From the IMG/VR virus record IMGVR_UViG_3300045988_046971, positions 1 to 39,555 of that record: a stretch of 39,555 nucleotides of DNA, one strand, 5' to 3'. A program made the position numbers and the translations under genes. Shown piece by piece: positions 2,336 through 39,555 of the stretch. Source of the DNA: a virus. The notes beneath the pieces were generated by a model that saw only the letters and a list, made by a program, of their open reading frames with translations, ran no database searches and was not told the DNA's origin. Position 1 is the first letter of the stretch, and every line of letters begins with the position of its first letter.

Positions 2336-3163
2336 CTAAATACATTGGTCGATTACGGCCTTACCTCGCAGCTGGCCGATCCACTTTGGTGGGATGGCCT
2401 CGAAGCCGTAATACGTGCCGGCTAGCGCACCGGCGACTGCCGCAGTGGTGTCTGTATCGTCACCGAGGTTGACGGCTTTGAGCACACAATCTTCGTATGC
2501 GCTCGTATTCAAGAAACACCATAGCGCAGCCTCGAGCGTGTGCTCGCAGTAGCCGTCGCTTTTGACTGCATCGACGGGTCTCGACGCGATGTACCCGTAT
2601 CTATGCCAGAGGTCGCCCTTCGCCGGCGTGCCGACATTGCGGATAGTCCGCAAAATATCGCACAACGCAACGCATGACCACTCGGCCACTGGGTGTGCAT
2701 GGGTAATCGCCGAGACCTCGCGTATATCGTAGGGTTCGATGGGGTCGAGCATAGCGAGCGGTGCCGTCCTCATGAGCGAGCCGTTGCCGCAGCCGTCGTA
2801 TGACTTCGCAGGCACACCCATCGAGATCGCCTTCCGACATGTCATGCCGACGTCGAACGCACGCCCGTCACACGTGAAATCACCACGCTCCAGCCACCGG
2901 CGGAACATGTAGGCGATGTCCGCCACATCGATGTACCCAAGTCGCTTGATGCTCGCACATATGCACAGGGCCATCGACGTGTCGTCAGACCAAGTGCCGG
3001 CATACTGCTTATGTGTGCCGTCGCCGACCATGCCAGTGCATTCGAACGCGCCGCGCTCGCGGAACTCATATGGCACACCGAGGGCATCGCCGACTGCGAG
3101 CCCGTATATACATGAGCGCATGCGGTCCCTGTCATAATGCACACAATTATATGTGGTCGACAT
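2336..3163 (-). CDS. ADP-ribosylglycohydrolase (ARH/DraG family)
   Basis: 275 aa from ATG 3163 (AGGAGG RBS). Family motifs GLAVGDALGVPYEF, WSDDTSM, GNGSLMRTAPLA and LGDDTDTTAAVAGALAGTYYG (metal-binding Asp/Thr clusters). The ORF-track extension to 3271 is Arg/Ser-rich junk. Confidence 0.85.
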   Translation of the reverse strand: MSTTYNCVHYDRDRMRSCIYGLAVGDALGVPYEFRERGAFECTGMVGDGTHKQYAGTWSDDTSMALCICASIKRLGYIDVADIAYMFRRWLERGDFTCDGRAFDVGMTCRKAISMGVPAKSYDGCGNGSLMRTAPLAMLDPIEPYDIREVSAITHAHPVAEWSCVALCDILRTIRNVGTPAKGDLWHRYGYIASRPVDAVKSDGYCEHTLEAALWCFLNTSAYEDCVLKAVNLGDDTDTTAAVAGALAGTYYGFEAIPPKWIGQLRGKAVIDQCI

Positions 3164-3341
3164 AGCGCACCTCCTTCGCCTCATACTCGCCGACGGTGCC
3201 ATCCGCGAACTCGACGAGCCCGACGGGCTTCTGGTTGTTCCCGAGGAAACCGCCTCGCTGGAACCACCCAATCAAGCTGCCGTCGTGTCCATGCACCGTG
3301 ACCGGCCTCCGCTCCATGGCCACGACCACTTCAAGCTGCAT
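3147..3341 (-). CDS. Hypothetical protein (64 aa)
   Basis: ATG 3341 overlaps the upstream TGA by 1 nt. GAGGGG RBS. No family recognised. Confidence 0.55.
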   Translation of the reverse strand: MQLEVVVAMERRPVTVHGHDGSLIGWFQRGGFLGNNQKPVGLVEFADGTVGEYEAKEVRYVDHI

Positions 3342-4496: not shown

Positions 4497-4501
4497 TTTG
4501 T

Positions 4502-4530
4502 TCCTCCTTCTGGTTGACAAGGTCATTATA
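4502..4530 (-). promoter_or_regulatory. Conserved promoter/leader box copy 1 (TATAAT -10 plus leader plus RBS)
   Basis: The minus strand reads TATAATgaccttgtcaaccagaaggagga followed by the ATG at 4496. The 28-mer tcctccttctggttgacaaggtcattat (4502-4529) is identical to 6486-6513. Confidence 0.6.
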
Positions 4531-4582
4531 CTACTTTCGGCGCATCGATATTTCGATAAATTGAAAGTAATTTCGAAATACT

Positions 4583-6292: not shown

Positions 6293-6481
6293 TTAGTGCA
6301 TGAGCATTTCGATGCGGTCGATCGCCGCTGCCTCGGAGCCGAACACGCCGCGGAACGACTCGCAACCGAAATCAGGGTCGACCTCGGCGAGGAACACCTT
6401 GTTGGTGGATGTGTCGTGGCGTACGACGAACGTATGCTCGTAACCGAGTACGTCCTGCTTGGTGATCTTGATGGGCTTCAT
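6293..6481 (-). CDS. Hypothetical protein (62 aa)
   Basis: ATG 6481 preceded by AAGGAGG inside promoter/leader box copy 2. Confidence 0.55.
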   Translation of the reverse strand: MKPIKITKQDVLGYEHTFVVRHDTSTNKVFLAEVDPDFGCESFRGVFGSEAAAIDRIEMLMH

Positions 6482-6485
6482 TTGC

Positions 6486-6514
6486 TCCTCCTTCTGGTTG
6501 ACAAGGTCATTATC
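6486..6514 (-). promoter_or_regulatory. Conserved promoter/leader box copy 2 (GATAAT -10 with upstream TG)
   Basis: The minus strand reads gtgGGATAATgaccttgtcaaccagaaggaggagcaaATG. The 28-mer at 6486-6513 is identical to 4502-4529. Confidence 0.6.
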
Positions 6515-6615
6515 CCACGGACCAGCACGCGTGTACGTACTTAATTTCAAATAAATCAAAAATAATTTCGATCAATTTAAAATTAAGTATGTACTTTCAG
6601 GTAGTTACCGGGTAA

Positions 6616-6960: not shown

Positions 6961-7008
6961 AGAACGCCCCAGATGCAATTGAGCGTCTGGGGCGTTCTTC
7001 TATTTCTA
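6961..7008 (+). terminator. Terminator for the plus-strand gene 6650-6895
   Basis: Stem agaacgcccca (6961-6971) / tggggcgttct (6988-6998), followed by TCTATTTCT on the plus strand. It abuts the stop codon of the convergent deaminase gene. Confidence 0.55.
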
Positions 7009-7431
7009 TGCACCTGTGACGACATCGACGCCGGCGTTGCCAATCATGCGCATGCATACTGGGCACGGTGAGATCTCATTAGGCGGGATGCGCTCGCCTG
7101 TCTCGAGGTCGACACCGGCCAAGTACAGTGTCGCGCCGATCATTTCAGAGCGCGAGGCCGACAGCATCGCATTCATCTCGGCGTGCACCGCCGGGCATGT
7201 GCCATAGTCGCCGTCGTTATGCCCGTGCCCGCATCGATGGCATATGCCTGCGTCGATGCAGTTGACGTCCCCGCGGGCGGCGCCGTTGTAGCCGGTCGCG
7301 ATGATCTCGTCGTTGGCCACGACCACGGCGCCGTAGCGGCGGCGCAGACACGTCGACCTGGCCGCCACAGCCAGTGCGATATCGAGGTAATACTCGGCCT
7401 TACTAAGCCTCGCCGGTCGATCCGAAAGCAC
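7006..7431 (-). CDS. dCMP deaminase (CMP/dCMP deaminase zinc-binding family)
   Basis: HAEMNA and PCPVCMRMI zinc motifs, and STCLRRRYGAVVV. Start placed at in-frame GTG 7431 after GGAGAGGGG. The ORF-track start at 7515 (also GTG) would overlap dUTPase by more than 100 nt with junk sequence. Confidence 0.8.
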   Translation of the reverse strand: MLSDRPARLSKAEYYLDIALAVAARSTCLRRRYGAVVVANDEIIATGYNGAARGDVNCIDAGICHRCGHGHNDGDYGTCPAVHAEMNAMLSASRSEMIGATLYLAGVDLETGERIPPNEISPCPVCMRMIGNAGVDVVTGA

Positions 7432-7822
7432 CGTCGCCCCTCTCCTCGCCCAACTGCTCGACGAAGTCGGCCAACACGATGGGCATGACGACGAGTTGGC
7501 CGATGCGAGTGCCACCGGGGACCTTCTTCAACTTATCGGTCAAGTTGGTGACGATCGCATGCACTTCGCCGGTATAGCCGGAATCAATCGGCGGCAGCTC
7601 GCAGACGAGGCCTTCGAGGCTCATGCCCGATCGGGGGAATACGCAGGCCATGACGCCGTCAGGCAGCTCGAGCGAGAAGCCCAGCGGGATGCGGCGGGTC
7701 TCATGTGGCTTCAGGGTCTCGCCGAAAGTGGTGTAGACATCGGCACCGGCGTCGTTATAGTGTGCACGGGCAGGGAGTTTGATATCGGCGCCCTCTGTGA
7801 TACGGTTGATCTTAATTTTCAT
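7403..7822 (-). CDS. dut: Trimeric dUTPase-family dNTP pyrophosphatase
   Basis: 139 aa with five dUTPase motifs in order: AGADVY, PRSG, IDSGYTGEV, RIGQLVV and RGDGAFGSTG. GGAGG RBS. Confidence 0.85.
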   Translation of the reverse strand: MKIKINRITEGADIKLPARAHYNDAGADVYTTFGETLKPHETRRIPLGFSLELPDGVMACVFPRSGMSLEGLVCELPPIDSGYTGEVHAIVTNLTDKLKKVPGGTRIGQLVVMPIVLADFVEQLGEERGDGAFGSTGEA

Positions 7823-8630
7823 CGTTTACCTCCATGACAATAGCGTTATTGAGACAATATTCGGATACGGCAGGCCTCGGCTCATCAGACGACATAACGA
7901 TATGTTCGATTTCCGAGATATTGGCCAAAAACTTCTCGATGTCGAACTTGAGGCGTGGCGCGCCGTTGTCGACGCCCCAGACTTCATGGACCCTGTCGAT
8001 GTCTTTCATATACGCATGGAGCGACACCGCGAAATGCGTGTACTTGCCGTATGCGACACCGAGCACATTCGCGATATGCTTCTGCAGCTCCGTGAAGAAC
8101 ACGACGTCGTAAGGCGTGCCGAGCCAAATGTCGTTGGAGCGCATGATGCCTGTGCAATCGAGCTTGCCGTCGCGGAGCTCGAATACGAGGGCGATCGTGC
8201 AGATCTCGTCTTTCGTCTCGAAACGCCATGGGTTCGGCACGTTGAAATTGATGATCGCGCGGCGTGAACTCGGGTCACGCGTGAGCGTGTCGATGACCTG
8301 TTCGACCTGGTCGAAGCCGTAGCGGTTGAACACGATGGCGCCGTACGCCGACCGGTTCGTCACGCCGTTGTCGCTGATGTGCTTCCAAAACGACGAGAAC
8401 TTCGAGATGAAATCGACATCATCGCGGCCTGTGAAATACCATGCGAGCTCGCCCAGCATGTACGAGAGCGAAAAACTCGTTCGGACCGTCGCGATGTTGT
8501 CGGTGATATCTAGCAGTGTGAAACCACTATTGCACAGTTCTTTAGTGCCTGCAACCTCATGGCCTTGCACCGAGATCTTGCCGCAGAGCTGGCGGTAGAT
8601 GTCGTTCATCGACTTGCCTACAACATGCAT
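7812..8630 (-). CDS. Thymidylate-synthase-family pyrimidine C5-(hydroxy)methylase; candidate dCMP hydroxymethylase (gp42-like)
   Basis: 272 aa. Catalytic-Cys segment DEICTIALVFELRDGKLDCTGIMRSNDIWLGTPYD. The residue 31 positions after the Cys is Asp, as in T4 gp42 (D179), not the Asn of ThyA (N177). MRSND and ELAWYF..FW...NSAYG-type segments resemble my recalled gp42 sequence more than ThyA. Confidence 0.6.
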   Translation of the reverse strand: MHVVGKSMNDIYRQLCGKISVQGHEVAGTKELCNSGFTLLDITDNIATVRTSFSLSYMLGELAWYFTGRDDVDFISKFSSFWKHISDNGVTNRSAYGAIVFNRYGFDQVEQVIDTLTRDPSSRRAIINFNVPNPWRFETKDEICTIALVFELRDGKLDCTGIMRSNDIWLGTPYDVVFFTELQKHIANVLGVAYGKYTHFAVSLHAYMKDIDRVHEVWGVDNGAPRLKFDIEKFLANISEIEHIVMSSDEPRPAVSEYCLNNAIVMEVNDEN

Positions 8631-9094
8631 TTCAAAACCTCCTTAATACACCAATCGACGTCATTGTCGTCCAAAGTGATCACACTACTATTCGCGGCGG
8701 CGAACTCCTCGTAACGACGATAAATGAGCCCGATATTATCGGTGATGACGTCGCCGAACTCGTCGCCGCGTAGCGTGAGGCGCCGTACCACCTCAGCGAG
8801 CGGCGGTAACACGATGACGATCGGGATGCCTAAGACAGAACACATATAAGTCAGTTTCTCACACGCATCGTTGTCGATACGTTGGGTGCGGCCAAATATA
8901 TCGGCGTAAACTTGTTCGCTGATCCAGCAGCGGTCGATCACGACGCCGTCACATGCGAGCTTTTGCATGTACTCGGTGGCCGACTGTCCGCCGTTGCACG
9001 TCATTTTTAAGATGTTCATGTCGAGTTTATCGGCGAGCGCCTTCGCGAGCGTGGACTTGCCGGCGCCGTCAGGGCCTTCGATGATGATAGGCAT
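8618..9094 (-). CDS. Thymidylate-kinase-like dNMP kinase (P-loop)
   Basis: 158 aa from ATG 9094 (AAGGAG RBS). The N-terminal IIIEGPDGAGKSTLAKAL is the TMK-type P-loop. Confidence 0.7.
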   Translation of the reverse strand: MPIIIEGPDGAGKSTLAKALADKLDMNILKMTCNGGQSATEYMQKLACDGVVIDRCWISEQVYADIFGRTQRIDNDACEKLTYMCSVLGIPIVIVLPPLAEVVRRLTLRGDEFGDVITDNIGLIYRRYEEFAAANSSVITLDDNDVDWCIKEVLKCML

Positions 9095-9096
9095 AA

Positions 9097-10980
9097 TTAC
9101 TCCTTCGTAAAAACACGTACACGTTTGCCGTTGATACGGCATGTCTTGCTTGCCAAGCCGTAGTGTTTGTTGGCCTGGCGGGTGAACTCGTTTTGACCGA
9201 GCGGCTTCAGGTTGTTCCTGATCGCCCAGGCCATATAGTAGTCGTACACAAGTGCCGTCGACTCGTTCACCACCTCGTCGACGGGCGTATCCTCGAAGTA
9301 ACCGAGGACGGGGTTGTTGGCGACGTGATAGTCCTCGATCTCCTTGACGACGACTTCGGGCATCGTGAATGAGCGGTTCGCCAAAACACGCTCAAGCCCC
9401 TTGAGGCCGATATTGATCAAGTGGCTCATGACATCAGGCGAATGGAGCTTGTACTTGATATATGGGTCGAAGTCCGGGTCGTCTTTAGAAAACGTCGCCT
9501 TGAACGGCACGAGCACGATGCGGTCGAGTACGGCACCGGTCTTGTCCCTGATGCGTGGCATGGAATTCGCCGAGAACAACAGCTTGGCGTAGCTGGCGAA
9601 GTCGAACGGGTCTTGTCCCTTCCGTTCGGCATTGACGCGGTCGCCGCTGACGAGCTTCTTGAAAATAGCGGGGTTCGCGATGAACTCGTCGCCGATGTCG
9701 TCGCCAATGTTGGCCAGTTTGCCGAATAGCTCCGCCGTCTTGAATCGCTCACCGAGTTCGGCCAGATCGAGGGCTGACGTATTGCTGTCGCCGAGCAGCG
9801 TCTTGAGCATGTCGAGGTAGGTCGACTTGCCGTTCGCCTTGTCGCCGATAAGGATGAAACTCTTGCGGAGCTCATTGCGCCTATAGAACAGGTAGCCGAT
9901 GACCTCCTCCAGCAAGGCGTAGATCCCGTCGTCGTCGCAGGCGAGGCGCCGCAGCGTCTTGTCGGTGAACTCCGACCAAATCGTCGGGTCATACTCCCAT
10001 GGGATACGGTTCGTGATCACGAACTCCGGCGAGAACGGCTCGAGCTCGCCTGTCTTGATGTCGTATACGCCGTTGGCGAATGCGATGTAGTCGGCGTCGG
10101 CCGCAGGGGCGTCGTCTTGGATGAGCACATCGAGGTAGTTGAGCACCTCGGTGCGCTTGGCCTTCGACAACATAGGCAAATGCCGGATCATCGCGTTCTC
10201 GATGAGCAGATTGCCGGACACATAGACGCCGTCGCGGTATATATGGAGCTGCCGGCCGATCTTGACGATACGGTGCTCGTTCTTGAGGTATTCGGCGAAC
10301 TTGTCGAACAGGAACGTGCCTTTGTTGAAAAACACGTCTTCGGCAAAAGCGTCGTCGCGGTAGACGACGCTCAGCTCTTGCTGCTCCATAGGCTTCTCGA
10401 ACATATACCGGTTGATGATGTCCAGGGTCTCACGCGCCTCGTCTTTCGTGAAACCTTCCGATTGCAATGTCAAGATGTAGTTGAATAACGCTTGGTTGCG
10501 GCCGTCGCCTTCTTCCATCTCACCGAACTCAGGTGCGTACTGCACAGGCCTGAGCCAACACGGCAGCTCGTCGTAACTTTCGTCCGGCTCGATGTCATAG
10601 GTCACATCGCGCTCATGGCCATCGACTTTCAGGCTGCCATATGTGGCTTTCGACCCGACTTTGATGTCGGCTTCGATGCCTATCGCCAGGCGTACGTGAG
10701 TCTTGCATTTCATACCGCGGGGGTAGCCGACGAAATAGAAATGCTTGCCACGAGTCGTCGCGATGACCTTGCACGCAATTTGCTCGGCCTCGATGATGTC
10801 CATCAGCTTTTCGCTCTGCGCCATGTCGTCGACATCGACGAAAATCGTCTCAGGTGCCAACACACCGCCGTAACCATCGAGCTTGCGCGCCTGGGCCAAT
10901 GTGAGGTACTGGCCGTCCTTCAGCTTCTGCGCGCACTTCTTGCCGTTGAGTTTCACATAACCGAGAAATAGCCGGTCCAT
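9097..10980 (-). CDS. Primase-polymerase / P4-D5-type helicase fusion (replicative primase-helicase)
   Basis: 627 aa from ATG 10980. N-terminal prim-pol motifs (FVDVDD, TTRGKHFYF). C-terminal Walker A GDKANGKST and the layout of phage/plasmid primase P4-family C-terminal domains. Confidence 0.8.
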   Translation of the reverse strand: MDRLFLGYVKLNGKKCAQKLKDGQYLTLAQARKLDGYGGVLAPETIFVDVDDMAQSEKLMDIIEAEQIACKVIATTRGKHFYFVGYPRGMKCKTHVRLAIGIEADIKVGSKATYGSLKVDGHERDVTYDIEPDESYDELPCWLRPVQYAPEFGEMEEGDGRNQALFNYILTLQSEGFTKDEARETLDIINRYMFEKPMEQQELSVVYRDDAFAEDVFFNKGTFLFDKFAEYLKNEHRIVKIGRQLHIYRDGVYVSGNLLIENAMIRHLPMLSKAKRTEVLNYLDVLIQDDAPAADADYIAFANGVYDIKTGELEPFSPEFVITNRIPWEYDPTIWSEFTDKTLRRLACDDDGIYALLEEVIGYLFYRRNELRKSFILIGDKANGKSTYLDMLKTLLGDSNTSALDLAELGERFKTAELFGKLANIGDDIGDEFIANPAIFKKLVSGDRVNAERKGQDPFDFASYAKLLFSANSMPRIRDKTGAVLDRIVLVPFKATFSKDDPDFDPYIKYKLHSPDVMSHLINIGLKGLERVLANRSFTMPEVVVKEIEDYHVANNPVLGYFEDTPVDEVVNESTALVYDYYMAWAIRNNLKPLGQNEFTRQANKHYGLASKTCRINGKRVRVFTKE

Positions 10981-15248: not shown

Positions 15249-16523
15249 CTAATCACCTCCCATCTCAAATAGCTTCTCTGTGTAGTCGCGCCGCATCGCC
15301 AGCGTATCGTAGATCTTCTCTTCGACAGTACCTTTCGATACCAGCTCGTAATACGTGCACGGCTTGTCTTGGCCGACACGGTGGATACGCTTCTTCGACT
15401 GCTCGAAGAGCGATGACGCGAGCGGCGGCGAGAAATAGACGCAAGTGTCGGCTTGCTGCAAGTTCACGCCCATGGCACCAGACTGGTATTGGATGAGCGC
15501 GACACCGTCGTCAGTATCGAAAAACGGTGACAAGTCATGCGCCTTGCCATTGAGCACGCCATACAACCTGTATCGCTTCTCCAACTCAGCCGTGAGCCCT
15601 TCGAGCTCGACATCGAAATTGTAGAACACGACGAGCCGTTTACTCGTGCCGTCCAGCAAATCGCCGAACGCCTCGAGCTTGGCACGCGAATACGCGGCAG
15701 CCAGTTGGCGTTTTGCCGTGAGGTCGCCGAACACTGTGTCGCCGACGAAATCGCGGCCGAACGCGGTGATTACGTTCACCTTGGCGAACTTACGGTAATA
15801 CTCGCTCATCGGTACGTCGATGCGGATAAAACGCTGATCAGGCAGGTCGATGACGTCGTCGGTCTTGAGGAAATCGCAACCGAGTTCCTTCATCTTACGC
15901 ACCAGCCTCTCCTCGTTCTTGTAACCCGTCACCTTCGTGATCGGAAAACCCTCACGCATCGTCGTCTCAGATTCGACATATTGCCGCCAAAACAGTTTCT
16001 CGTCGATACACCAACCGAGCATGTTCAGCTGCGTCCACAGACGTTCGTATTTGCCGTCGACGGGCGTACCAGACAGCAAGATAAGCTCATTTGCCCTTGC
16101 AGCCAGTTTCATCGCGGCCTTGGTACGTTTCGACGACTTATTCTGCAGCAGCGACGACTCGTCGAACATCAATGCGAAGCACTTCAACGCCTGAAGTTCC
16201 GGGCGTCTCCACAACAGGTCATAATTGATCACGGCGACTGCATCCCGTGCATGTGGGTCACGGATACGCCGTTCGAAACCTTCCATGGCATGTGGCTTGG
16301 TCAAATTGACGACGTCGATGTCATAGTAGTTCGCGAAATGGCCAACCCAATCGGCGACTTTCGACTTTTGGCATACGACCAAGGCCAAATGCCAACACTT
16401 GTCCGACATCAACTTTTCTGCACCTGTGAACGTCTTGCCCAGGCCCATGTCGTGGTAGAACGCGCACTTGCGTTTACCGTCGACACGGTCAAGTGCTGCC
16501 TGCTGGTAAGCGAACAGACCCAT
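15249..16523 (-). CDS. SNF2-family DEAD/H helicase
   Basis: 424 aa. Motif I DMGLGKT, motif II FDESSLLQN, C-terminal helicase motifs (QSGAMGVNLQ, QSKKRIHRVGQ). Confidence 0.85.
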   Translation of the reverse strand: MGLFAYQQAALDRVDGKRKCAFYHDMGLGKTFTGAEKLMSDKCWHLALVVCQKSKVADWVGHFANYYDIDVVNLTKPHAMEGFERRIRDPHARDAVAVINYDLLWRRPELQALKCFALMFDESSLLQNKSSKRTKAAMKLAARANELILLSGTPVDGKYERLWTQLNMLGWCIDEKLFWRQYVESETTMREGFPITKVTGYKNEERLVRKMKELGCDFLKTDDVIDLPDQRFIRIDVPMSEYYRKFAKVNVITAFGRDFVGDTVFGDLTAKRQLAAAYSRAKLEAFGDLLDGTSKRLVVFYNFDVELEGLTAELEKRYRLYGVLNGKAHDLSPFFDTDDGVALIQYQSGAMGVNLQQADTCVYFSPPLASSLFEQSKKRIHRVGQDKPCTYYELVSKGTVEEKIYDTLAMRRDYTEKLFEMGGD

Positions 16524-16717
16524 TACGCGAAGAACATCGACTTGATTTCCTCGCCCGTCAAGTCGTACCGGTCTGCGATAGCCTTTATCTCAGACTGCTT
16601 GAACTCGGCTTTGCCGTTGATCTTCCACGATAATGTGGACTCGGTGATGCCGAGCATTCGTGCGAGCCCGCTTTGGGTATCGCCGAACTCGCGGATCGTT
16701 TCATATAGGCTTTTCAT
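16523..16717 (-). CDS. XRE/Cro-type helix-turn-helix transcriptional regulator
   Basis: 64 aa. TQSGLARMLGITESTLSWKINGK is a classical HTH_3 segment. First gene downstream of iteron module B. AGGAGGTGA RBS. Confidence 0.8.
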   Translation of the reverse strand: MKSLYETIREFGDTQSGLARMLGITESTLSWKINGKAEFKQSEIKAIADRYDLTGEEIKSMFFA

Positions 16718-16796
16718 CTTTCACCTCCTTCGATCGGCGGACCTTATTATACAACGTTTTCTTTCGATTTATTCGAGTATTTATAACTTTTTCGAA
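16718..16796 (-). promoter_or_regulatory. Candidate early promoter upstream of the HTH gene
   Basis: The minus strand reads ...ataaatcgaaagaaaacgtTGTATAATaaggtccgccgatcgaAGGAGGtgaaagATG, an extended -10 of TGnTATAAT type. The -35 is weak. Confidence 0.45.
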
Positions 16797-17107
16797 ACAC
16801 CTGTCACACTGTCAAACACCTGTCAAACGGCTGATTTCAGGCCTGTTTGACAGTAAGTCGCATCACTACGTCGCATTTCTCGCCTCCTGTCACACTGTCA
16901 CACAGTTTTCTCCCCTATCCTTAGATAATTTGACTTTTATATCTATATAAGGTCTATTAGATATATAGATAAAAAATATCTAATATAGGGGCCCCTTGTT
17001 GTTTGACAGCTTGACAGGTGATGAGAAACGCGAGATAGAAATGCAAACACCTGTCACACTGGCCCTTTTAGGAGTGTGACAGGTGGTTGACACTGTTTGA
17101 CAGGTGA
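16797..17107. promoter_or_regulatory. Iteron + AT-rich module B (origin-like or operator array)
   Basis: 12 TGTCA(C/A)AC or G(T/G)TTGACA cores at 16802, 16810, 16821, 16845, 16888, 16896, 17001, 17011, 17052, 17074, 17085 and 17095. AT-rich core at 16906-16991 ending aaaatatctaatatagggg. 13-bp inverted repeat cacctgtcacact (17048-17060) / agtgtgacaggtg (17073-17085). Collinear with 39285-39500 plus 1-115. Confidence 0.65.
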
Positions 17108-22868: not shown

Positions 22869-23555
22869 TTAACTCGTCCTGAGCCACGTGTAAGGCCCGA
22901 GGCTAGGTACACGTACCCACGTGCCACTGATGTCGTTAGGATTGAACGAGCCATCTGTCTCGACATATTCGCCGACGCGGTGGGCCATGATCCACGTCGT
23001 GTTCGGATCGTACGTATCGATGATGTGCTGCCACGGTGTCCACGAAGAGTCTGACCCGCCGCGCCGCCACCATATGTCAGAGGCGCTCATGGCGACCTGC
23101 TTCGGGTACCCGCCGGTATTATCGTTCCATTGCACGAAAGTGACGAGTGTCGCGAAGGTTTCACCGCTTGAAATCCCAATGGCGTTCGCAGCCTTGAATT
23201 CGACCACCGTCTCATGCGGGTGATTCTTCATGTACCACGCCGGGGTCCGGTTGTCGTTTCGGGTGTCCTTGATCTCGCCGCCGCTCGGCCCCTGCGGGCC
23301 TGTCGGTCCCTGCGGGCCGGTATCACCCTTGGGCCCCTGGATACCTTGAGGCCCCTGTGTGCCGACTGGGCCAGTCGGGCCTGTCGGCCCCTGCGGGCCT
23401 GTCGGTCCCTGCGGGCCGGTATCACCCTTCTCGCCTTTCGGCCCTTGCGGCCCTGTCGCGCCGGTGGCACCCCGTGCTCCGGTTGCGCCTTGCGGGCCTG
23501 TGGCGCCGGTGTCGCCTTTCGGACCCTTGATGTTGCCTACAAGGTACTTAGCCAT
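22869..23555 (-). CDS. Collagen-like tail fibre protein
   Basis: 228 aa. Uninterrupted Gly-X-Y repeats from about aa 10 to 92 (nt ~23280-23528), followed by a globular Trp-rich C-terminal domain. Confidence 0.75.
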
Positions 23556-23557
23556 CG

Positions 23558-25693
23558 TTACTCACCTATCTCGTAGTAAAGCTCACCCGTGGTCTGATTA
23601 TACGAGAGCGGTGGGGCTGCAGCCCCGTCCGCCACATGCGACCATAGGTTGCCGTCAGAATCGACCGTAAGAGAGAAGAACCCCGACAGCGGTGTAGTGA
23701 CGCCGGAGTCGCCGCGCTCACCCTTCTCGCCCTTCGGTCCTTGGATACCCTGCGGGCCTCGCTCGCCCTGCTCGCCCTTCACGCCTTGCGGGCCAACTGG
23801 ACCGGTCGCGCCCTTCGCGCCGGTCGCGCCTGTGGCACCCGTCGCGCCTTGGATGCCTTGAGGGCCTGTGGCCCCCGTGGCTCCCTTGGGGCCTTGCGGT
23901 CCTGTGGCTCCAGCCACGCCCGTCGCACCGATCGGGCCCTGCGCGCCCGTCGGGCCCTGCGCGCCCTTCACACCTGTCGCGCCGCTCATATCGGCGATGA
24001 GTGAATAGCCGTTTGCCGATTTCACATACAGCTCGGCATTGTGCGGGTCCTCGACGTTCGAGCTGATTACCGCGAAGCCACCGACCTTCACGCCGTCCGT
24101 CTTCCATCCCGCCTGCATCGCCTCGTAGCTGGCGTACACCTTCGAAATGGAGAAACCCTCACCGGTATCACCCTTCGGGCCCTGATCACCCTTGACACCC
24201 TGCGGGCCCCGCGGACCAGTCTCGCCTTGGATACCCTGGGGGCCTTGCTTTCCCTGCACACCCTGCGGGCCTTGCTCACCGGTCTCGCCTTTGGGGCCTT
24301 GTGGTCCGGTAGCACCTTTCGGTCCTTGCGGTCCTGTCTCGCCCTGCGGGCCGGTATCACCAGTATCTCCCTTGATTCCCTGCAGGCCTTGGATACCCTG
24401 CGGGCCTCGCTCGCCCTTCGGGCCTTGGATACCAGTCGCGCCACGCGGGATACCGAGTGATAGCGTCTTAATTAGCCCTTCGCCTGACAGTGACGCGGTG
24501 GCCTTAGAGCCTTCGGTAAGCGTGGACACATCGCCCATCGCGATGTCTGCCTGCGCCCACGTCTGCAAGGAGTTCGAGGCATCTGTCACAGCCTTGTCGG
24601 CCTTGGCCTCCACAGCCTTGAGCGATTCCGCATCGACTTCCGCGCTAAATGTGTAGTTCTCGAGCTTCAGGCCCTTTCCGGCGAGGTAAGCGTGGCCTCC
24701 ACCACCTTCGGCAATCGTGCTGGATGAGTTCTTCGTTGTGGTCTCGCTGCCGACCTCGTACTTATATGTCGCCACGCCATGCGAGACCTGCACGATCTTC
24801 TTCACCACGGTCGCGCTGACGATCTTGCCATGCGCATTATCGCGCGCCGAGATGATGTCACCGACATCGACGTCGATGTCGTCATGCGCATCGACGTCGA
24901 CACTGCCCTTGGTCTGGTACCCCTGGAGCTTCTTGCTGCCTTCCTCCTCGAGCTTCGCCTCATTGGCGTTGCTGTAGTCGTAAAGCGCGCATATCTCGTC
25001 GACACCGAAGAGGCTTTGGGTGTGGCTGACGTTGCCCGCCGCGTCCGCATAGAAATGGACAACGGCGCGATTTTCCAGTTCGCCGGTGCCGGCACAGACC
25101 AGGTGGTTGATGCAACGGTGGACTGTTGTCAACGTAAAATCAAGTAGGTCAGAGTCGACCTTGTTCGCATAGTTAACTACTGGCGGCAGCGAGAGCTCGA
25201 CTTTTCCGCCGATGCGGCGCATCGAGACCTTGCGGCCGTTCGCCTCCGCCAGTGCCTTGAGACCACTGTAGCCGTCAGCAAACCGCTCAAATGTATAACT
25301 TATCGTGCTGTCGTCCGATGCGACCGAGAACAGGCCCGAGAGGCCCATGCGCCCGATGAGTGACGCGAGCACCGTGCCCGCTTTTCCACTTACTGAAAGG
25401 TAGCTGCTACCGGAATCAGGGAGCAGGCGCTTACCTGCTAAGATCCCGTGCCATGTACGACCCTTGCACAGAACTGTGCCGGTCATTTCCCTGCCTGCAT
25501 CATAGGTAACCTCGTCGACGACGCCGCCGTACTCGGTCCCGTCGATGAACACGAGTTGGCCCTCGGCAGGGGCTTCGGCGGCACGTGCCTCAAGCTGCAA
25601 CGCGTTCTCGTCGCTTCCGAAGGCGAGGTCAAGCTCGAATTCCTCGATTTCGCGGATGTCGCCTACGGCTGGATCATGCACCACTAAAACCAT
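23558..25693 (-). CDS. Tail-associated protein (Tal; Gp37-like N-terminal domain) with two collagen-like blocks
   Basis: 711 aa, directly after Dit. Gly-X-Y blocks at aa 414-513 (nt 24155-24454) and aa 571-663 (nt 23705-23983), separated by a ~57-aa globular insert. Confidence 0.75.
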
Positions 25694-32966: not shown

Positions 32967-33203
32967 TCATGCCTCTTCCTCGATATAAAACGGGCAATCG
33001 GCACCGTCGAAATATACTGCGTCGGGCTTGATGTTGCCGAGGCGGCGCTCGTACGCCATGCAATACGACTTGTCCGGCGAGTCCTCCCACGGCGCCGGGC
33101 CGTGTGCGTTCGCACAGGTCCGGCATTTGCGGGGGTTGTGTTTCAGGCAGCCAAACGAGTCGTCGAGCTCGAGGTTAGATACTTTCTGTTTCTCAATCGC
33201 CAT
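32967..33203 (-). CDS. Small Cys-rich protein immediately downstream of the MuF-ART gene (78 aa)
   Basis: ATG 33203 after AAGGAG. Cys pattern C..H....C..C...H....C....C. Confidence 0.6.
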   Translation of the reverse strand: MAIEKQKVSNLELDDSFGCLKHNPRKCRTCANAHGPAPWEDSPDKSYCMAYERRLGNIKPDAVYFDGADCPFYIEEEA

Positions 33204-33211
33204 GGTACTCC

Positions 33212-35830
33212 TTATTTGTATTTGCTCTTCGAGCCGGTCCACTCTTTGGGATCCTGCTGGAACTTATCGTAACCCTGTTCGGGGTGCAATTCCATCACGA
33301 CATGCATCTTGCCGTCGGTGCCCTTATATACGTCGGTCGCCGTGTAGTAACCGCCGCGCTGTAGAATCATCTCCGACTCGTGACCGAAACTTTTTTGTTC
33401 CTTCTTACCATCCCAGCTATGCCCGCTGTAGTTGGCGCCAGAAAACGCTGAAAATGGCTCCGCGTACATCATCTCAGACCCAGCCGGGCAATAGATTTCC
33501 ATGGCGACAGGCTTGCCGCTGAAACCCTTACCCTTCGCCGTACCGGTTGACACGAACGATTGAATGCGGTTCGACATACCGACGAGCGATTTGAGCTCAT
33601 CAGTATCCATAGAATACAACTCCGATGCATCTATGCCAAAGAACGATTCCATAGCGTTGTAATCGCAACCACGTACGAGCCATGTATCGTGATCATACGA
33701 TGATTTCTCAATGATCTCAGTCATGCGGCGGATCGCGGAGCCCTTGCCCTCAAAATCGATCCACACGTTGCCGACACCCTTGTAGAACTTCTTCTCCCAA
33801 CCGGAACCACCCTGCGACCACGGCTTCTGGAAACCGGACAGCGGGCGGTTCCACGCACCCGAGCTCTGAGTATAGCCGTAAATGCCGTCGCGTTGTGACT
33901 TGGTGGCTTCGCGCCAAACCTTGCCGCTCACGCCACGGAAATGCTCGTCGGCCTCGGCGGGCGAGGTGAACCGCCATGCGTTTGCCTTGCGTTCCTCGCT
34001 GAACGCAGAATCTTCAATGAGTCCGAGGTCGACCATCTGCTTGTGGATCGACTGCCGCTTGAGCTTCAACGTAGCCATGTTGTCGACATGTGCCTTATAT
34101 GCTTGGCCCTGCTTATCGAAATCATCGACATCGTCAATGAGCGTCTGCCACTTCACCAATGCTGCATCGTCGCCGGCATCCATGGCCTTTGACGCCTGCT
34201 CTTCGAAATACTCGAACTTCTTGGGGATCGCCTCTTTCTTCGCATCCCAATCGGCGAGCGTCACGGGGTCTTTCCAGATGCCCGAATATGTCTTATCGGA
34301 ACTCTTCATGAGCTCTTTCAGCACGTCGATCTCGTTGTCGACATCCTTCAGCTGACTATCGAGTGAATTCGCGAGCTTCTGCTCTTTCGTTAGCTTCTCT
34401 GCTTTCCATTCCTCATAACTCATCTTGCCGAGCTTGTTTGCCCGCTCGACCTCGTCATACTCTACGTCGCCGATAACGGGCACGAGCGTGCAGCGGCAAT
34501 TGTAGACCTCAGAGGCAGGCCCATCCGGGTCACCCGGGTACTTCAGCCCGTTGCTGAACTCGGCGTCGAGCTTGACCACTTCGCCGTCGAGGTGGCGATG
34601 GCTGCCGCGCGTACGCGAGTCGAGTGCCGCGAGCCATTGCTTTTCGACGTCGATACCCATACCGGCGGCGCGCTCGTAGCCCTTGAGCTTACCGAGCGAG
34701 TGCGCACTCGTCATGGCAGTGCGTGCCGCCTTCATCGCAGCGCGCTGGTCCATGGCGGCGATGCCTGCGATCGATGCGGCGAGCTGCGGGATCGTCTGCC
34801 CCTGCAGTACTGCCTGCGTCACCGCAGACGTGACGTGGCGGCTGTTCCATGCTGTGTCCTTCGCCTTGTCGAATGCCGCATGCGGGAGCAAATCGGGCTC
34901 GTTCGCGACGAGCTCCATGACGGTGTTCTTGTTGTACAGCGTGAACGACGTGTTCGCCTTGGCGCCGTGTTCGATCTCATACGTCGCGAAGTTCATGCCC
35001 TCTGCATACACGCCTGCAGGCACTTGGTTGACATACGCCATCGCCATCTTGTCGGCGGCAGTGAGGTCCTGCGTCAACGCTTTCTTAAGGGCTTTAAGCT
35101 GGTCATTATGCAACACCTGGTCCTTGCGCCAGGCAGCATATGCCTTAGCGTCCTTCTTGCCCGCGGCGACATCTGCCTGCCATTTAGCATCATCGGCCAC
35201 GAACTCCTTGAGCGAGGACTCAATGCGGGAGGTCATGCCGTCGATCGCATTGGCGTAGGTGAGCTGCAGCTTCCCCTGCAGCTCCTGCGCCTGCTTCTCA
35301 AGCAATTTGGCCTGGGTGCTTTCCTGCGACTTCGCTGCCTTCGCGGCGAGTTTCTTGCCTGCCTTGCCGGCACCGTCCTTCGACTTGTAGCCGTTCTTGA
35401 AAGTGCCGTCGGGCATCAGGTAACCGTAAGTGCCGTCCGTGAATGTGTTAACGGTATAGCCGCCTTTGTCCTCACTCTTCAGGACCTGCGGGCCCTTCGG
35501 CTCTGCGGCGGCGAGCTTGGTGGCTGCCTTCTTGGCGCCGTCTTTCGACTTATAGCCCTCCTTGTGCTTGCCGCCGTCCGTCATGTAGCCGTAAGTGCCG
35601 TCTGAGTACGTATCGATCTGGAAGCCGTCGAAGTATTGCGTCTTGGTGACGGCCGCAGGGCCTGCGGCTTCTTCCGGCACGAGCTCATACCCGCCGAATT
35701 CCAAGGCGAGTTCGATCGCTTTCTCTTTCGTGGGGAATGATGACGGCGTCGTATAGCCTGCGCTCGTCACATACTTCCACCCAGAACCATCCTGGATAAC
35801 GGGGATCTCGTCGATTGAATGGATCTTCAC
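33212..35830 (-). CDS. MuF/SPP1-gp7-like minor head protein fused to a C-terminal ADP-ribosyltransferase (R-S-E type) domain
   Basis: 872 aa; GTG start 35830 after AAGGTGG. MuF core LDSRTRGSHRHLDGEVV...YNCRCTLVPV (aa ~255-455). C-terminal domain has LVRG (R720), VSTG (S761-T762) and HESEM (E818-x-E820), preceded by YGYTQSSGAWNRPL. Confidence 0.8.
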   Translation of the reverse strand: MKIHSIDEIPVIQDGSGWKYVTSAGYTTPSSFPTKEKAIELALEFGGYELVPEEAAGPAAVTKTQYFDGFQIDTYSDGTYGYMTDGGKHKEGYKSKDGAKKAATKLAAAEPKGPQVLKSEDKGGYTVNTFTDGTYGYLMPDGTFKNGYKSKDGAGKAGKKLAAKAAKSQESTQAKLLEKQAQELQGKLQLTYANAIDGMTSRIESSLKEFVADDAKWQADVAAGKKDAKAYAAWRKDQVLHNDQLKALKKALTQDLTAADKMAMAYVNQVPAGVYAEGMNFATYEIEHGAKANTSFTLYNKNTVMELVANEPDLLPHAAFDKAKDTAWNSRHVTSAVTQAVLQGQTIPQLAASIAGIAAMDQRAAMKAARTAMTSAHSLGKLKGYERAAGMGIDVEKQWLAALDSRTRGSHRHLDGEVVKLDAEFSNGLKYPGDPDGPASEVYNCRCTLVPVIGDVEYDEVERANKLGKMSYEEWKAEKLTKEQKLANSLDSQLKDVDNEIDVLKELMKSSDKTYSGIWKDPVTLADWDAKKEAIPKKFEYFEEQASKAMDAGDDAALVKWQTLIDDVDDFDKQGQAYKAHVDNMATLKLKRQSIHKQMVDLGLIEDSAFSEERKANAWRFTSPAEADEHFRGVSGKVWREATKSQRDGIYGYTQSSGAWNRPLSGFQKPWSQGGSGWEKKFYKGVGNVWIDFEGKGSAIRRMTEIIEKSSYDHDTWLVRGCDYNAMESFFGIDASELYSMDTDELKSLVGMSNRIQSFVSTGTAKGKGFSGKPVAMEIYCPAGSEMMYAEPFSAFSGANYSGHSWDGKKEQKSFGHESEMILQRGGYYTATDVYKGTDGKMHVVMELHPEQGYDKFQQDPKEWTGSKSKYK

Positions 35831-35849: not shown

Positions 35850-37313
35850 TTAAAACATGCCATCGTCGTCATCGTCATCGTCGTCATTCCCGGCAGGTGC
35901 GCCGGTGTTCACCAATGCGCCCATGCGGTCTTCGTCCTCGGCGTCGAGGCGTTCCTTGATCGCCTGCACCTCACTGGGCGAGATGTTCGGCAGCTTACGC
36001 AGGATAGTCTCGCGGTCGAGGTACTGCGCCTCACTCATGACCATGTCGACCTGCTCTTTTTGGTTGCTGATACGCGTGCGCTTGAATACGGGCGCATCCT
36101 CGATACCCATGAGGGTGAGCAGCTGCTGCACGAACTCCGAGACTTGGTATTCGAAATCGCTCGCCTCCTCATCCATAGGCTGGTACGCGGCGTCGATGTG
36201 GTCGTTGGTCGCGCCTGCGGCCACCGTGTGCACGTCGAGCGCACCGAAATCTTCATAGATACCGTCGCGGATCGACTGCAGGTACGCCTGGCGGGCGGCG
36301 TACGGAATCTCCTGGGTATACGCCTGCGCATTGCCGCCGTCGTCAGAGTCGACGAGTGCGACGTGGTTGATCTTCAGCCGGTCGAGGAACTTCTGCAGGT
36401 CCTTGTCGCTCATGCCGCCTGCGTTCGACACGAGCCAGTAGATCTGCGCGCAGTCGGTGAGGTCGTTCGCGAAGCCGCTGCGGATCAGGTCGTAGCTGTC
36501 GATCGCCTGGCGCATGCCAACGAGCGTCGACTGGTGCAGCTTCGAGCCCCACATCGGCACCACTGGCAACGCCGAATAGTTCTCGCCGCCGATGACTTGC
36601 TCAATACCGTCTGCCGGTGTGTAGCTCGTCTTCTCGATATAGGGCCGCTTCTCCTCGACGACGTCGAGGCGTTCGCTCGTGGAGCCGTTCGCGTCTTGGT
36701 AGCTCTGGTAGCGGGTGTAGCCGTCTGCCTCGTAGAGCACGACCTGCATTGGGCGCGACTGGTCGATACGCCAGAAGCGGATACCCGCCTTGAGCGTGCC
36801 GTCGTATTCATCCCAGAGCGGAACGAACTCGGTCAGCGGGAAGACGAACATGCGGTTGAGGTTCCAGAAGCCGAAACAAACACCGTGGATGAGCGCATCG
36901 TATGCGAGCGTGCGCAGGTCATGGTCGAAATGCTTGCCGAGCTTCTCCTTGGTCTCGTCTTTCTTGCCAATCTCGTCGACATCGATGAACGACACGCCCT
37001 GGCCGAGCGAGTACATCGTGCGCTGGGTGTTCAGGCGGTGGAAGAAATTGCTCGCGATCTTGTTGTTGCTCGCGGTGAAATCGACGAGCTTGGACCCGGT
37101 GATGTCGAAGACCTTCTGCACATAGGCGTTGATAGTCGTGTTCTCCTGGCGGTCGTATGCATCGGCCATGCGTGCCGTGCGGTACGCCTTGCCAGCTTTG
37201 TGCCGCTCGATCGCCTCCAATACGAAGCCCTCGCGGTTGGCGTCGCCTGCCTCCACGAAATCTTGGTACGTGAGCATGCGCGACTTGTCGTCGCGTACCT
37301 CGTCCCATCTCAT
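35850..37313 (-). CDS. Portal protein
   Basis: 487 aa; AGGAGG RBS. Located between terL and MuF. Acidic poly-Asp C-terminus (DDDDDDDDGMF). Confidence 0.85.
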   Translation of the reverse strand: MRWDEVRDDKSRMLTYQDFVEAGDANREGFVLEAIERHKAGKAYRTARMADAYDRQENTTINAYVQKVFDITGSKLVDFTASNNKIASNFFHRLNTQRTMYSLGQGVSFIDVDEIGKKDETKEKLGKHFDHDLRTLAYDALIHGVCFGFWNLNRMFVFPLTEFVPLWDEYDGTLKAGIRFWRIDQSRPMQVVLYEADGYTRYQSYQDANGSTSERLDVVEEKRPYIEKTSYTPADGIEQVIGGENYSALPVVPMWGSKLHQSTLVGMRQAIDSYDLIRSGFANDLTDCAQIYWLVSNAGGMSDKDLQKFLDRLKINHVALVDSDDGGNAQAYTQEIPYAARQAYLQSIRDGIYEDFGALDVHTVAAGATNDHIDAAYQPMDEEASDFEYQVSEFVQQLLTLMGIEDAPVFKRTRISNQKEQVDMVMSEAQYLDRETILRKLPNISPSEVQAIKERLDAEDEDRMGALVNTGAPAGNDDDDDDDDGMF

Positions 37314-39284: not shown

Positions 39285-39500
39285 CTACCTGTCAAACACC
39301 TGTCACACATGTGTCACACCGCTTTTTTCGATTTATCTGCACCGTGTGACAGGTAGTCTCGATAAAACGCGACGTAGACGCATGTTTTTGCAACTACCTG
39401 TCACACTGTCACACTGACATGCTCCCCTATACCCCGATATTTTGAAAATATATACTTATCTAATGATAGATATACCTATAGAAAATATCTAATATAGGGG
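39285..39500. promoter_or_regulatory. Iteron + AT-rich module A, right half (continues into 1-115 after circularisation)
   Basis: Cores at 39290, 39301, 39312, 39344 (inverted), 39399 and 39407. aaaacgcgacgtag (39364-39377) is the inverse of ctacgtcgcgtttt at 47-60. AT-rich core at 39421-39500 ending aaaatatctaatatagggg, as in 16973-16991. Confidence 0.65.
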
Positions 39501-39555
39501 CGGCCTGCTGTTTGCCAGTGTGACACTTGGGTACCCAACAATTTACCTACGTCGC
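39501..39555. repeat. Second copy of the 55-bp terminal repeat
   Basis: Identical to 1-55. Confidence 0.95.

Follow-up and report, generated by a model that had tools for sequence, protein, structure and literature searches.

A predicted ADP-ribosyltransferase on an exchangeable C-terminal cassette of a phage MuF protein

This work concerns one gene in the genome of a gut phage, IMG/VR record IMGVR_UViG_3300045988_046971 (positions 1 to 39,555; "the window" hereafter denotes this whole stretch of 39,555 nucleotides). The gene (33212..35830, on the minus strand, as are the features of its protein, the small ORF and the ADP-ribosylhydrolase gene described below) begins with GTG, ends with TAA and, according to the open reading frame (ORF) list and its translation, encodes a complete protein of 872 amino acids (aa): an N-terminal MuF minor capsid protein fused to a C-terminal ADP-ribosyltransferase (ART). 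Sequence comparison and structural modelling together confirm the prediction that the C-terminus is a genuine R-S-ExE ART of the C3/iota/VIP2 type. The domain, the linker that precedes it and a small ORF that follows it form an exchangeable and dispensable cassette in a polymorphic MuF cargo slot. We consider it likely that the protein is a head-packaged effector: one that is co-ejected with the DNA, probably modifies arginine, acts on host proteins at the onset of infection and is silenced late in infection by the 78-aa product of the small ORF.

Identity of the C-terminal domain

An earlier note on this DNA had recognized the ordered motifs of R-S-E ARTs in the last part of the protein (33281-33988, equivalent to aa 615-850). 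The motifs proved exact in the 872-aa translation: YGYTQSSGAWNRPL lies at aa 651-664, LVRG at aa 718-721 (R720), VSTG at aa 760-763 (S761, T762) and HESEM at aa 817-821 (E818, E820), with a spacing of 41 aa from R to S and of 59 aa from S to E. Short motifs can arise by chance; therefore the domain was tested as a whole. The Pfam model ADPrib_exo_Tox (PF03496) matches aa 639-845 with an E value of 2.6e-10 (40.4 bits against a gathering score of 23.4), and an AlphaFold2 (AF2) model of aa 604-872, built from an alignment of 20 homologues, has a pLDDT of 84.5 and a pTM of 0.84. The fold was checked with Foldseek: the model matches C3bot1 (E 6e-14), C3stau2, C3lim, VIP2, Certhrax, Plx2A, CDTa and Listeria Lmo0066 at E values of 1e-11 to 6e-14, and the target-normalised TM scores for single-domain ART targets are 0.70-0.80. 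Both the ART fold and its N-terminal helical subdomain are thus found in the model, and the proposal that an ART of the C3/iota/VIP2 type is fused to MuF is borne out.

The active site is predicted to be complete. In HMMER alignments Arg720, the R of R-S-E (33671..33673, in WLVRG), falls on the YRG motif of Lmo0066, and Ser761-Thr762 (33545..33550) fall on the STS motif of C3, the third residue of which is Gly763 in the window (STG). The putative catalytic ExE motif, Glu818-Ser-Glu820 (33371..33379), is placed in the same manner: EMILQRG aligns to EMLLPRH of C3, which makes E820 the counterpart of the C3 catalytic Glu. The motif is preceded by an unusually long conserved loop (aa 797-817) that contains WDG and varies between alleles. 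The Ser and both Glu residues are invariant across 64 diverse ART homologues, and R720 is invariant in the alignment of 20. Among the 25 close relatives with an intact fusion (see below) R720, S761-T762 and E820 are invariant, and E818 is present in 24. By a known rule, an ExE motif marks ARTs that modify arginine residues of proteins. The predicted acceptor should accordingly be protein arginine; the two features that point to it are the ExE motif and a DraG/Tri1-like ADP-ribosylhydrolase (ARH) encoded in the same genome.

Layout of the MuF-ART protein

The ART domain (aa 611-872, 33215..34000) was delimited by Pfam PF03496, AF2, Foldseek against PDB and BFVD, and the ratio of nonsynonymous to synonymous substitution rates (dN/dS). 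It is preceded by a conserved helical linker (aa 485-610, 34001..34378) with the motif KTYSGIWKDPVTLADWDAKKxxIPxKxxYF; the linker accompanies the ART in distant homologues and includes a variable patch at aa 545-568. The boundary of the exchangeable cassette is the junction codon Q484 (CAG, 34379..34381). Immediately before it ends the minor capsid core of MuF/SPP1-gp7 type (aa 171-483, 34382..35320), as defined by Pfam, TIGR01641 and dN/dS: Phage_Mu_F matches aa 332-449 (34484-34837, E 8.2e-19) and TIGR01641 phageSPP1_gp7 scores 41.1 bits, above its NCBIfam cutoff of 39.65. Of the PHROG families, PHROG 115 'minor head protein' spans aa 174-847 and 'Bxa ADP-ribosyl transferase' spans aa 598-848.

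The N-terminal extension (aa 1-170, 35321..35830) consists of three short repeats with weak similarity to DUF2188, and contains an internal direct repeat (35343-35446 / 35508-35611). Repeat copy number varies among the relatives described below, with one copy in L001 and L002 and more in L003.

The portal gene (35850-37313) lies directly upstream of the MuF-ART gene, which sits between it and the scaffold and major capsid genes. Association with the phage head is suggested by this position, by the MuF/gp7 domains and by the capsid domains found in the nearest ART relatives. The last of these come from a HMMER scan with the ART region over 1.84 billion cluster representatives, which returned 839 matches at E<=1e-3, of which 175 reach E<=1e-30. 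Almost all of the top 150 have the ART at the extreme C-terminus of a protein of 550-1100 aa; of the 64 nearest representatives, 47 contain Phage_Mu_F and seven Phage_min_cap2, that is, 54 have a minor-capsid domain. Several database ART proteins of ~360 aa start at a Met just past the junction, which suggests that there may be more split variants. Structural matches in BFVD include an 871-aa 'Minor capsid protein' of Siphoviridae sp. ctFbs2, 81% identical over the ART region, and, at rank 8, the 'ADP-ribosyltransferase domain and MuF-like fusion protein' of Microbacterium phage Percival.

The MuF C-terminus as an exchangeable slot

Thirty-nine close relatives of the locus were compared: four from metagenome assemblies (L001-L004), 33 from IMG/VR and two from contigs of Collinsella metagenome-assembled genomes (MAGs). 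All have the same gene order, and the flanking genes are ~90% identical in nucleotide sequence. The state of the slot was read in frame onward from a conserved YNCRCT motif; in L029 the contig ends before the junction and the state is not readable.

An in-frame MuF-linker-ART fusion is present in the window and in 25 relatives. These intact fusions comprise about five groups of ART alleles, with 77-100% aa identity, the differences between which are concentrated in the loop after STG, the extended loop before ExE, aa 665-676 and the linker patch. The loops after STG and before ExE are taken to be the equivalents of the PN and ARTT loops, by which C3-like ARTs recognise their substrates.

The remaining states are of several kinds. 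In two relatives an amber codon (TAG) replaces Q484 (L001:5018-5020, L002:1157-1159) and the ART frame downstream is otherwise intact. Two others, L003 and L004, from independent samples, share a 1-nt deletion 6 nt upstream of the Q484 codon and a second frameshift within the ART. A clean in-frame deletion has removed linker and ART from L028 (KLTKE|WTGSKDKYK), a deletion in L025 joins MuF to the next gene, and L031 has no cargo, its MuF protein ending shortly past the junction. Finally, in seven loci (L032-L037 and L039) an unrelated module of ~240 aa (e.g., L032:11036-11770) stands in place of the ART. This module and the L028 deletion begin within a few codons of Q484: ART alleles, alternative module, deletions, amber stop and frameshifts all have a common starting junction.

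The alternative module has an invariant HEFAHAYAD (HExxH) and, downstream, a conserved EAERFAD. It found no sequence match in Pfam, PHROG, NCBIfam or PDB, and its AF2 model is poor (pLDDT 53.5). Because of the invariant HEFAH motif and the conserved downstream Glu we regard it as a putative zincin metallopeptidase. Zincin metallopeptidases are the commonest partner domain in the 'polyvalent' injected proteins of phages (PMC5512222).

Selection and loss

Among intact fusions the dN/dS of the ART is 0.04-0.13, as low as that of the MuF core (0.04-0.10). Between the two amber relatives, L001 and L002, the corresponding values are 0.38 for the ART and 0.09 for the MuF core. Programmed read-through, or recoding of the stop codon, at the junction was considered and rejected: no suppressor tRNA was found for the amber relatives, no other gene looks interrupted and dN/dS is relaxed. 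Our interpretation is accordingly that cargo has been lost in the amber and frameshift variants.

Relative to the window, A>G and T>C changes in L001 and L002 exceed the reverse changes ~2-4 to 1 in terL, portal, MuF and ART alike. A hypermutation of this kind directed at the ART was rejected, since the bias is genome-wide in the L001/L002 lineage and amounts to compositional drift. It is possible that this AT-to-GC drift marks adaptation to a host of higher GC content.

A small cysteine-rich ORF accompanies the cassette

Directly downstream of the ART is an ORF encoding a Cys-rich protein of 78 aa (32967..33203), a candidate cognate immunity protein or inhibitor. Its Shine-Dalgarno sequence, AAGGAG, overlaps the ART stop codon and its ATG follows 8 nt after the toxin gene, an arrangement that implies translational coupling; its own stop codon overlaps the start of the next gene. 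The ORF occurs at every locus that has the ART cassette, be the ART intact, broken or deleted, and is absent from all eight loci that have the HExxH module, which no small ORF follows, or no cargo.

More distant phages show the same association. In L038 and L044 (the latter a Veillonellaceae MAG contig) the linker and ART are ~47% identical to those of the window and the head genes differ; directly after the ART stands an ORF of 65-71 aa that shares the five Cys of the window's small ORF, together with a Tyr and a G..KP motif. A profile search with the small ORF gathered 29 clusters. These include a Megasphaera chromosome contig (L052:1-860) with three tandem paralogues adjoining ECF-transporter and MreB genes, no ART being nearby. 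These paralogues and a copy in L054, to which we return below, could be orphan or poly-immunity genes.

Translational coupling, the tracking of the cassette, adjacency in distant phages and the orphan tandem arrays make the 78-aa protein a candidate immunity protein, by analogy with polymorphic-toxin immunity genes, which likewise are both linked to a toxin and found in orphan arrays. Parallels are Bsi, the small partner of the MuF-ART Bxa (PMC11699363), and the small ORFs noted by Jamet et al. (PMC5576092). The immunity-like ORF and the polymorphism of the slot, neither of which figured in the earlier note, are hallmarks of polymorphic toxins.

The ADP-ribosylhydrolase is not coupled to the ART

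That the genome has its own ADP-ribosylglycohydrolase, as the earlier note had it, is correct: an ORF at 2336..3271 (probable start M37, at 3163) matches the family in Pfam with an E value of 1.5e-58 and is of the DraG/Tri1/Lmo0067-like type. Its best PDB matches are Lmo0067 (8za7_A, 7e-41), 6dre_A (2e-39; deposited as ADP-ribosyl-(dinitrogen reductase) hydrolase) and DraG, and in NCBIfam it comes closest to 'ADP-ribosylarginine hydrolase Tri1', though short of the equivalog cutoff. ARHs of the DraG/Tri1-like class act on arginine-ADP-ribose, and the enzyme is thus a chemically plausible eraser of marks made by an ExE ART.

The implied partnership with the ART did not hold. The ARH gene lies ~7 kb from the ART gene, within the non-structural gene block. 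Among genomes in which the upstream region is covered, both genes are intact in 12, the ART is intact and the ARH disrupted in three, the ART is lost or replaced and the ARH intact in six, and both are disrupted in two. There is no association (12/3 versus 6/2), by which we reject the ARH as an obligate cognate antidote. The three disruptions beside an intact ART are a frameshift in L005 and deletions in L011 and L026. Lesions of the gene were mapped at L005:2889-3712, L011:5304-5396 and L026:4124-4298, and are present also in L003 and L028. Because it is frameshifted or internally deleted independently of the state of the ART, the ARH is an often-lost accessory gene. Removal of ADP-ribose from arginine is probably within its capacity, but the ART does not need the ARH, nor the ARH the ART.

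Genome context and lifestyle

Bases 1-55 of the window are identical to bases 39501-39555, and the window is therefore a circularly closed, complete phage genome of ~39.5 kb. No credible gene lies on the plus strand. The genes run from terminase and portal through MuF-ART, the small ORF, a gp10-like head-completion gene, scaffold and major capsid to tail genes, lysis genes (Dp-1 holin, Amidase_2) and a block of replication and nucleotide genes: SNF2, a protein combining PD-(D/E)XK and AAA_24, a DNA polymerase, a D5-like primase-helicase, a kinase, a ThyA-like protein and a dCMP deaminase.

The earlier note had also described the genome as having neither integrase nor repressor. Searches of every minus-strand ORF and of the long plus-strand ORFs against Pfam and PHROGs found no integrase or recombinase. 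The second part needs amending: there is a 64-aa gene of the Cro/C1 helix-turn-helix (HTH) type (16523-16717) with no divergent repressor arrangement, so what can be said is that there is no recognisable lysogeny switch. All 39 close relatives are on contigs of 1.6-39.7 kb, none longer than a single phage genome. The closed circle, the lack of a recombinase and the phage's own DNA polymerase, primase-helicase and nucleotide enzymes suggest, as far as gene content can tell, a genome of the lytic type.

A megablast search of the window against 50,697 phage records gave no match, hence no near-identical cultured phage; the best tblastn matches cover the MuF core alone, at ~35% identity. The sole hint of a host, a weak one, comes from the two close relatives on contigs binned with uncultured Collinsella (Actinobacteria) MAGs.

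Several other features of the genome were recorded. Repeated intergenic elements (16958-17016 and 39467-39525; 16788-16817, 16874-16903 and 39385-39414; 4497-4534 and 6481-6518) are located upstream of gene blocks and have TTGACA-like boxes; they are probably shared promoter or operator modules. At 7006-9142 the genes for the dCMP deaminase, the divergent thymidylate-synthase-like protein and the nucleotide kinase adjoin one another, which raises the possibility of a modified pyrimidine made by the phage. Long stretches of collagen-like repeats mark two tail or fibre genes (22869-25693): they have Gly-X-Y repeats, seen as many 9-nt-periodic direct repeats at 23280-24443. A small ORF at 1353-1616 has a weak match to the Lar restriction-alleviation family, below the Pfam threshold.

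A model for MuF-ART and the alternatives

The reading that we favor is as follows. The MuF/SPP1-gp7 module would place a few copies of the protein inside the head, beside the portal and the DNA, with the conserved helical linker bearing a C-terminal mono-ADP-ribosyltransferase of predicted C3/VIP2 fold and intact R-S-ExE site. Upon infection MuF-ART would exit the capsid along with the DNA and, like T4 Alt, ADP-ribosylate host proteins ahead of phage gene expression. Late in infection the toxin would again be made in bulk, and the coupled 78-aa Cys-rich protein would most likely bind and silence it until packaging. The DraG/Tri1-like ARH, the product of an independent accessory gene, would probably be able to erase Arg-ADP-ribose marks. 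The identity, fold and conserved catalytic residues of the domain, the purifying selection upon it, the behavior of the cassette and the absence of an integrase are matters of observation; packaging, ejection, arginine specificity, the target, the immunity function and the timing of expression are what we infer from them.

Several points weigh against this reading. The presence of the protein in virions, and its ejection, are predictions from the MuF fusion, and, the lytic reading being drawn from genes that are absent, a temperate lifestyle retains some residual likelihood. The cassette is lost or broken in six of the 39 close relatives and replaced or absent in eight more, and is therefore not essential. 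Some R-S-E ARTs, e.g., pierisin and ScARP, modify DNA; given these, protein arginine is not certain to be the target. The candidate immunity protein matches nothing in Pfam, PHROG or NCBIfam and bears no similarity to the small ORFs beside a Bxa-like ART. Co-divergence of the small ORF with the ART alleles was looked for, and there is none (r = 0.11). A further copy of the ORF (L054:3258-3437) stands behind a MuF gene and then a different, HExxH-containing region. For these last two reasons the link between small ORF and ART could be partly one of physical linkage.

The likeliest of the alternatives is that MuF-ART, as a polymorphic toxin, serves competition between bacteria or between phages and not the takeover of a productive host: particles or lysate might poison cells that do not have the cognate small immunity protein, or the injected toxin might sabotage cells already occupied by a rival phage. 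Every structural hallmark is there (a conserved N-terminal trafficking domain, a sharp junction, exchangeable C-terminal modules, alleles that differ in the substrate loops, a tightly linked small ORF and orphan arrays), and MuF toxins have been proposed to act in this manner (PMC5576092). The same features, however, are equally expected if the protein is an injected takeover effector and poisons the cell that makes it. Moreover, the genome is closed and has neither integrase nor lysogeny apparatus, so that there is no lysogen to benefit, and the ART alleles, at 77-100% identity and with a small ORF that does not diverge in step, are unlike typical toxin-immunity arms races. We regard this explanation as unlikely; for an integrase-less phage, host takeover in preference to competition, as the earlier note had argued, is a plausible conclusion.

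We give still less credence to an ART that acts during assembly on the phage's own DNA or virion proteins, so as to escape restriction or another defence, the mark being taken off afterwards by the ARH. The MuF domain is predicted to bring the enzyme next to packaged DNA, enzymes of the pierisin and ScARP kind do modify DNA bases, and the genome encodes nucleotide-modifying enzymes as well as the sub-threshold Lar-like match. Yet the closest structural relatives (C3, VIP2, CDTa, Certhrax and Lmo0066), and Bxa, modify proteins (PMC11699363); the ARH is of the arginine-ADP-ribose class and uncoupled from the ART; and related phages do well with no ART at all. That the domain is a decaying or catalytically dead relic, now a mere structural appendage of MuF, is hardly credible: the repeated losses (the L001/L002 amber codon with its elevated dN/dS, the L003/L004 frameshifts, the deletions in L025 and L028) show a dispensable cassette, but against a relic stand the intact ORF in the window and 25 relatives, the conserved catalytic residues, the low dN/dS of intact fusions and a large conserved ART clade (the 175 cluster representatives at E<=1e-30).

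A bolder extension of the favored reading, which we consider improbable, is that the 78-aa protein represents a new and probably zinc-binding family of inhibitors of MuF-delivered ARTs, that the orphan Megasphaera copies are host-encoded antidotes against a phage-injected toxin, and that a strictly lytic lineage uses the MuF C-terminus as a socket into which takeover effectors, be they ART or metallopeptidase, are plugged. If true, the Megasphaera copies would be an anti-phage defence that captures the phage's own immunity gene.

Enzymes delivered by the virion precede phage gene expression and thus influence both how the first minutes of infection proceed and whether host defences succeed. 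Dozens of near-isogenic gut phages that differ mainly in what occupies the MuF slot (an ART allele, a putative metallopeptidase or nothing) constitute a natural experiment. With the ART always accompanied by a small candidate inhibitor and the ARH varying independently, what an injected ART costs and brings the phage, and how its neutralisation is organised, could be tested directly with a suitable host. Of the new leads, the most useful are the family of candidate inhibitors and the natural series of alleles.

Comparison with known systems

According to Jamet et al. (2017, PMC5576092), MuF toxins occur only in temperate phages and prophages, for the most part those of Firmicutes. The statement in the earlier note that they occur mainly in temperate phages is fair to that paper, but not to later ones, PMC7302621 among them. 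The window resembles the MuF polymorphic toxins (PMC5576092; Zhang et al. 2012, PMC3482391) in having an N-terminal MuF domain encoded in the head-morphogenesis module beside the portal, in the swapping of different C-terminal domains at a sharp junction, in the small ORF that follows after 8 nt as a putative immunity gene, and in its abundance in the human gut. It is unlike those of Jamet et al. in that they belong to temperate phages and the closed genome here has no integrase, and its one host hint points to Actinobacteria.

The characterised MuF-ART Bxa, from Bacteroides prophage PhiBxa, is promiscuous in its ADP-ribosylation of arginine; an ARH, BAH, and a small binding protein, Bsi, neutralise it (PMC11699363). 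As with Bxa, the MuF-ART described here is of ~870 aa and an ARH is encoded in the same genome. A small non-enzymatic neutraliser of the Bxa type would be expected, and the candidate is the ORF at 32967-33203, for which binding is predicted by analogy. The differences are considerable: the window ART is ~30% identical to a Bxa-like phage protein; at the Bxa-type locus of a Bacteroides phage the toxin gene has the ARH gene and small ORFs as direct neighbours on the other strand, whereas here the ARH is remote and the small ORF, unrelated in sequence, is co-directional with the toxin gene.

Two comparisons concern the enzyme itself and its delivery. The window ART shares the fold and the R-S-E active site of C3, VIP2, iota, CDTa and Certhrax. 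Lmo0066 is among its best matches and Lmo0067 is the closest match of the ARH, which recalls the Listeria Lmo0066-Lmo0067 ART-ARH pair (PDB 8za7); a literature search found no paper describing that pair. Identity to these enzymes, Lmo0066 included, is 15-20%, and the window ART differs from them in the conserved WDG insertion of ~20 residues before ExE, from C3 in having ExE in place of QxE, and in its predicted delivery by a phage head protein as opposed to secretion. T4 Alt, an Arg-specific ART, is a separate internal protein that has a capsid-targeting sequence and is trimmed by the prohead protease; the ART of the window, in contrast, is fused to MuF, and no prohead protease gene is seen between the portal and capsid genes. 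The proposed role is that of Alt: an ART carried in the capsid would enter the cell with the DNA and act on host proteins from time zero (PMC9503650, PMC5512222).

The same architecture is known from Microbacterium phages of clusters EH and EJ (e.g., Percival gp4), which infect Actinobacteria: there MuF-VIP2 fusions occur in lytic phages with 'no features of temperate phages' (PMC7302621). Percival gp4 is distant from the window protein, at ~19% identity in the structural alignment, and the EH/EJ report describes no immunity ORF, no ARH and no cassette polymorphism beyond one VIP2-less homologue (PMC7302621). More broadly, ARTs of the Alt/VIP2 family are described as frequent fusion partners of MuF, with packaging and injection as their probable fate (PMC9503650, PMC5512222). 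The novelty that the earlier note had attached to such a fusion in a phage without lysogeny genes does not survive these reports. The MuF-ART fusion is widespread and already described, and the gene studied here is a well-supported but ordinary example of it; because such fusions are already known as common, and already so interpreted, the current picture is unchanged. New are the exchangeable slot, the coupled Cys-rich ORF that accompanies the ART cassette, and an ARH that does not co-vary with the ART.

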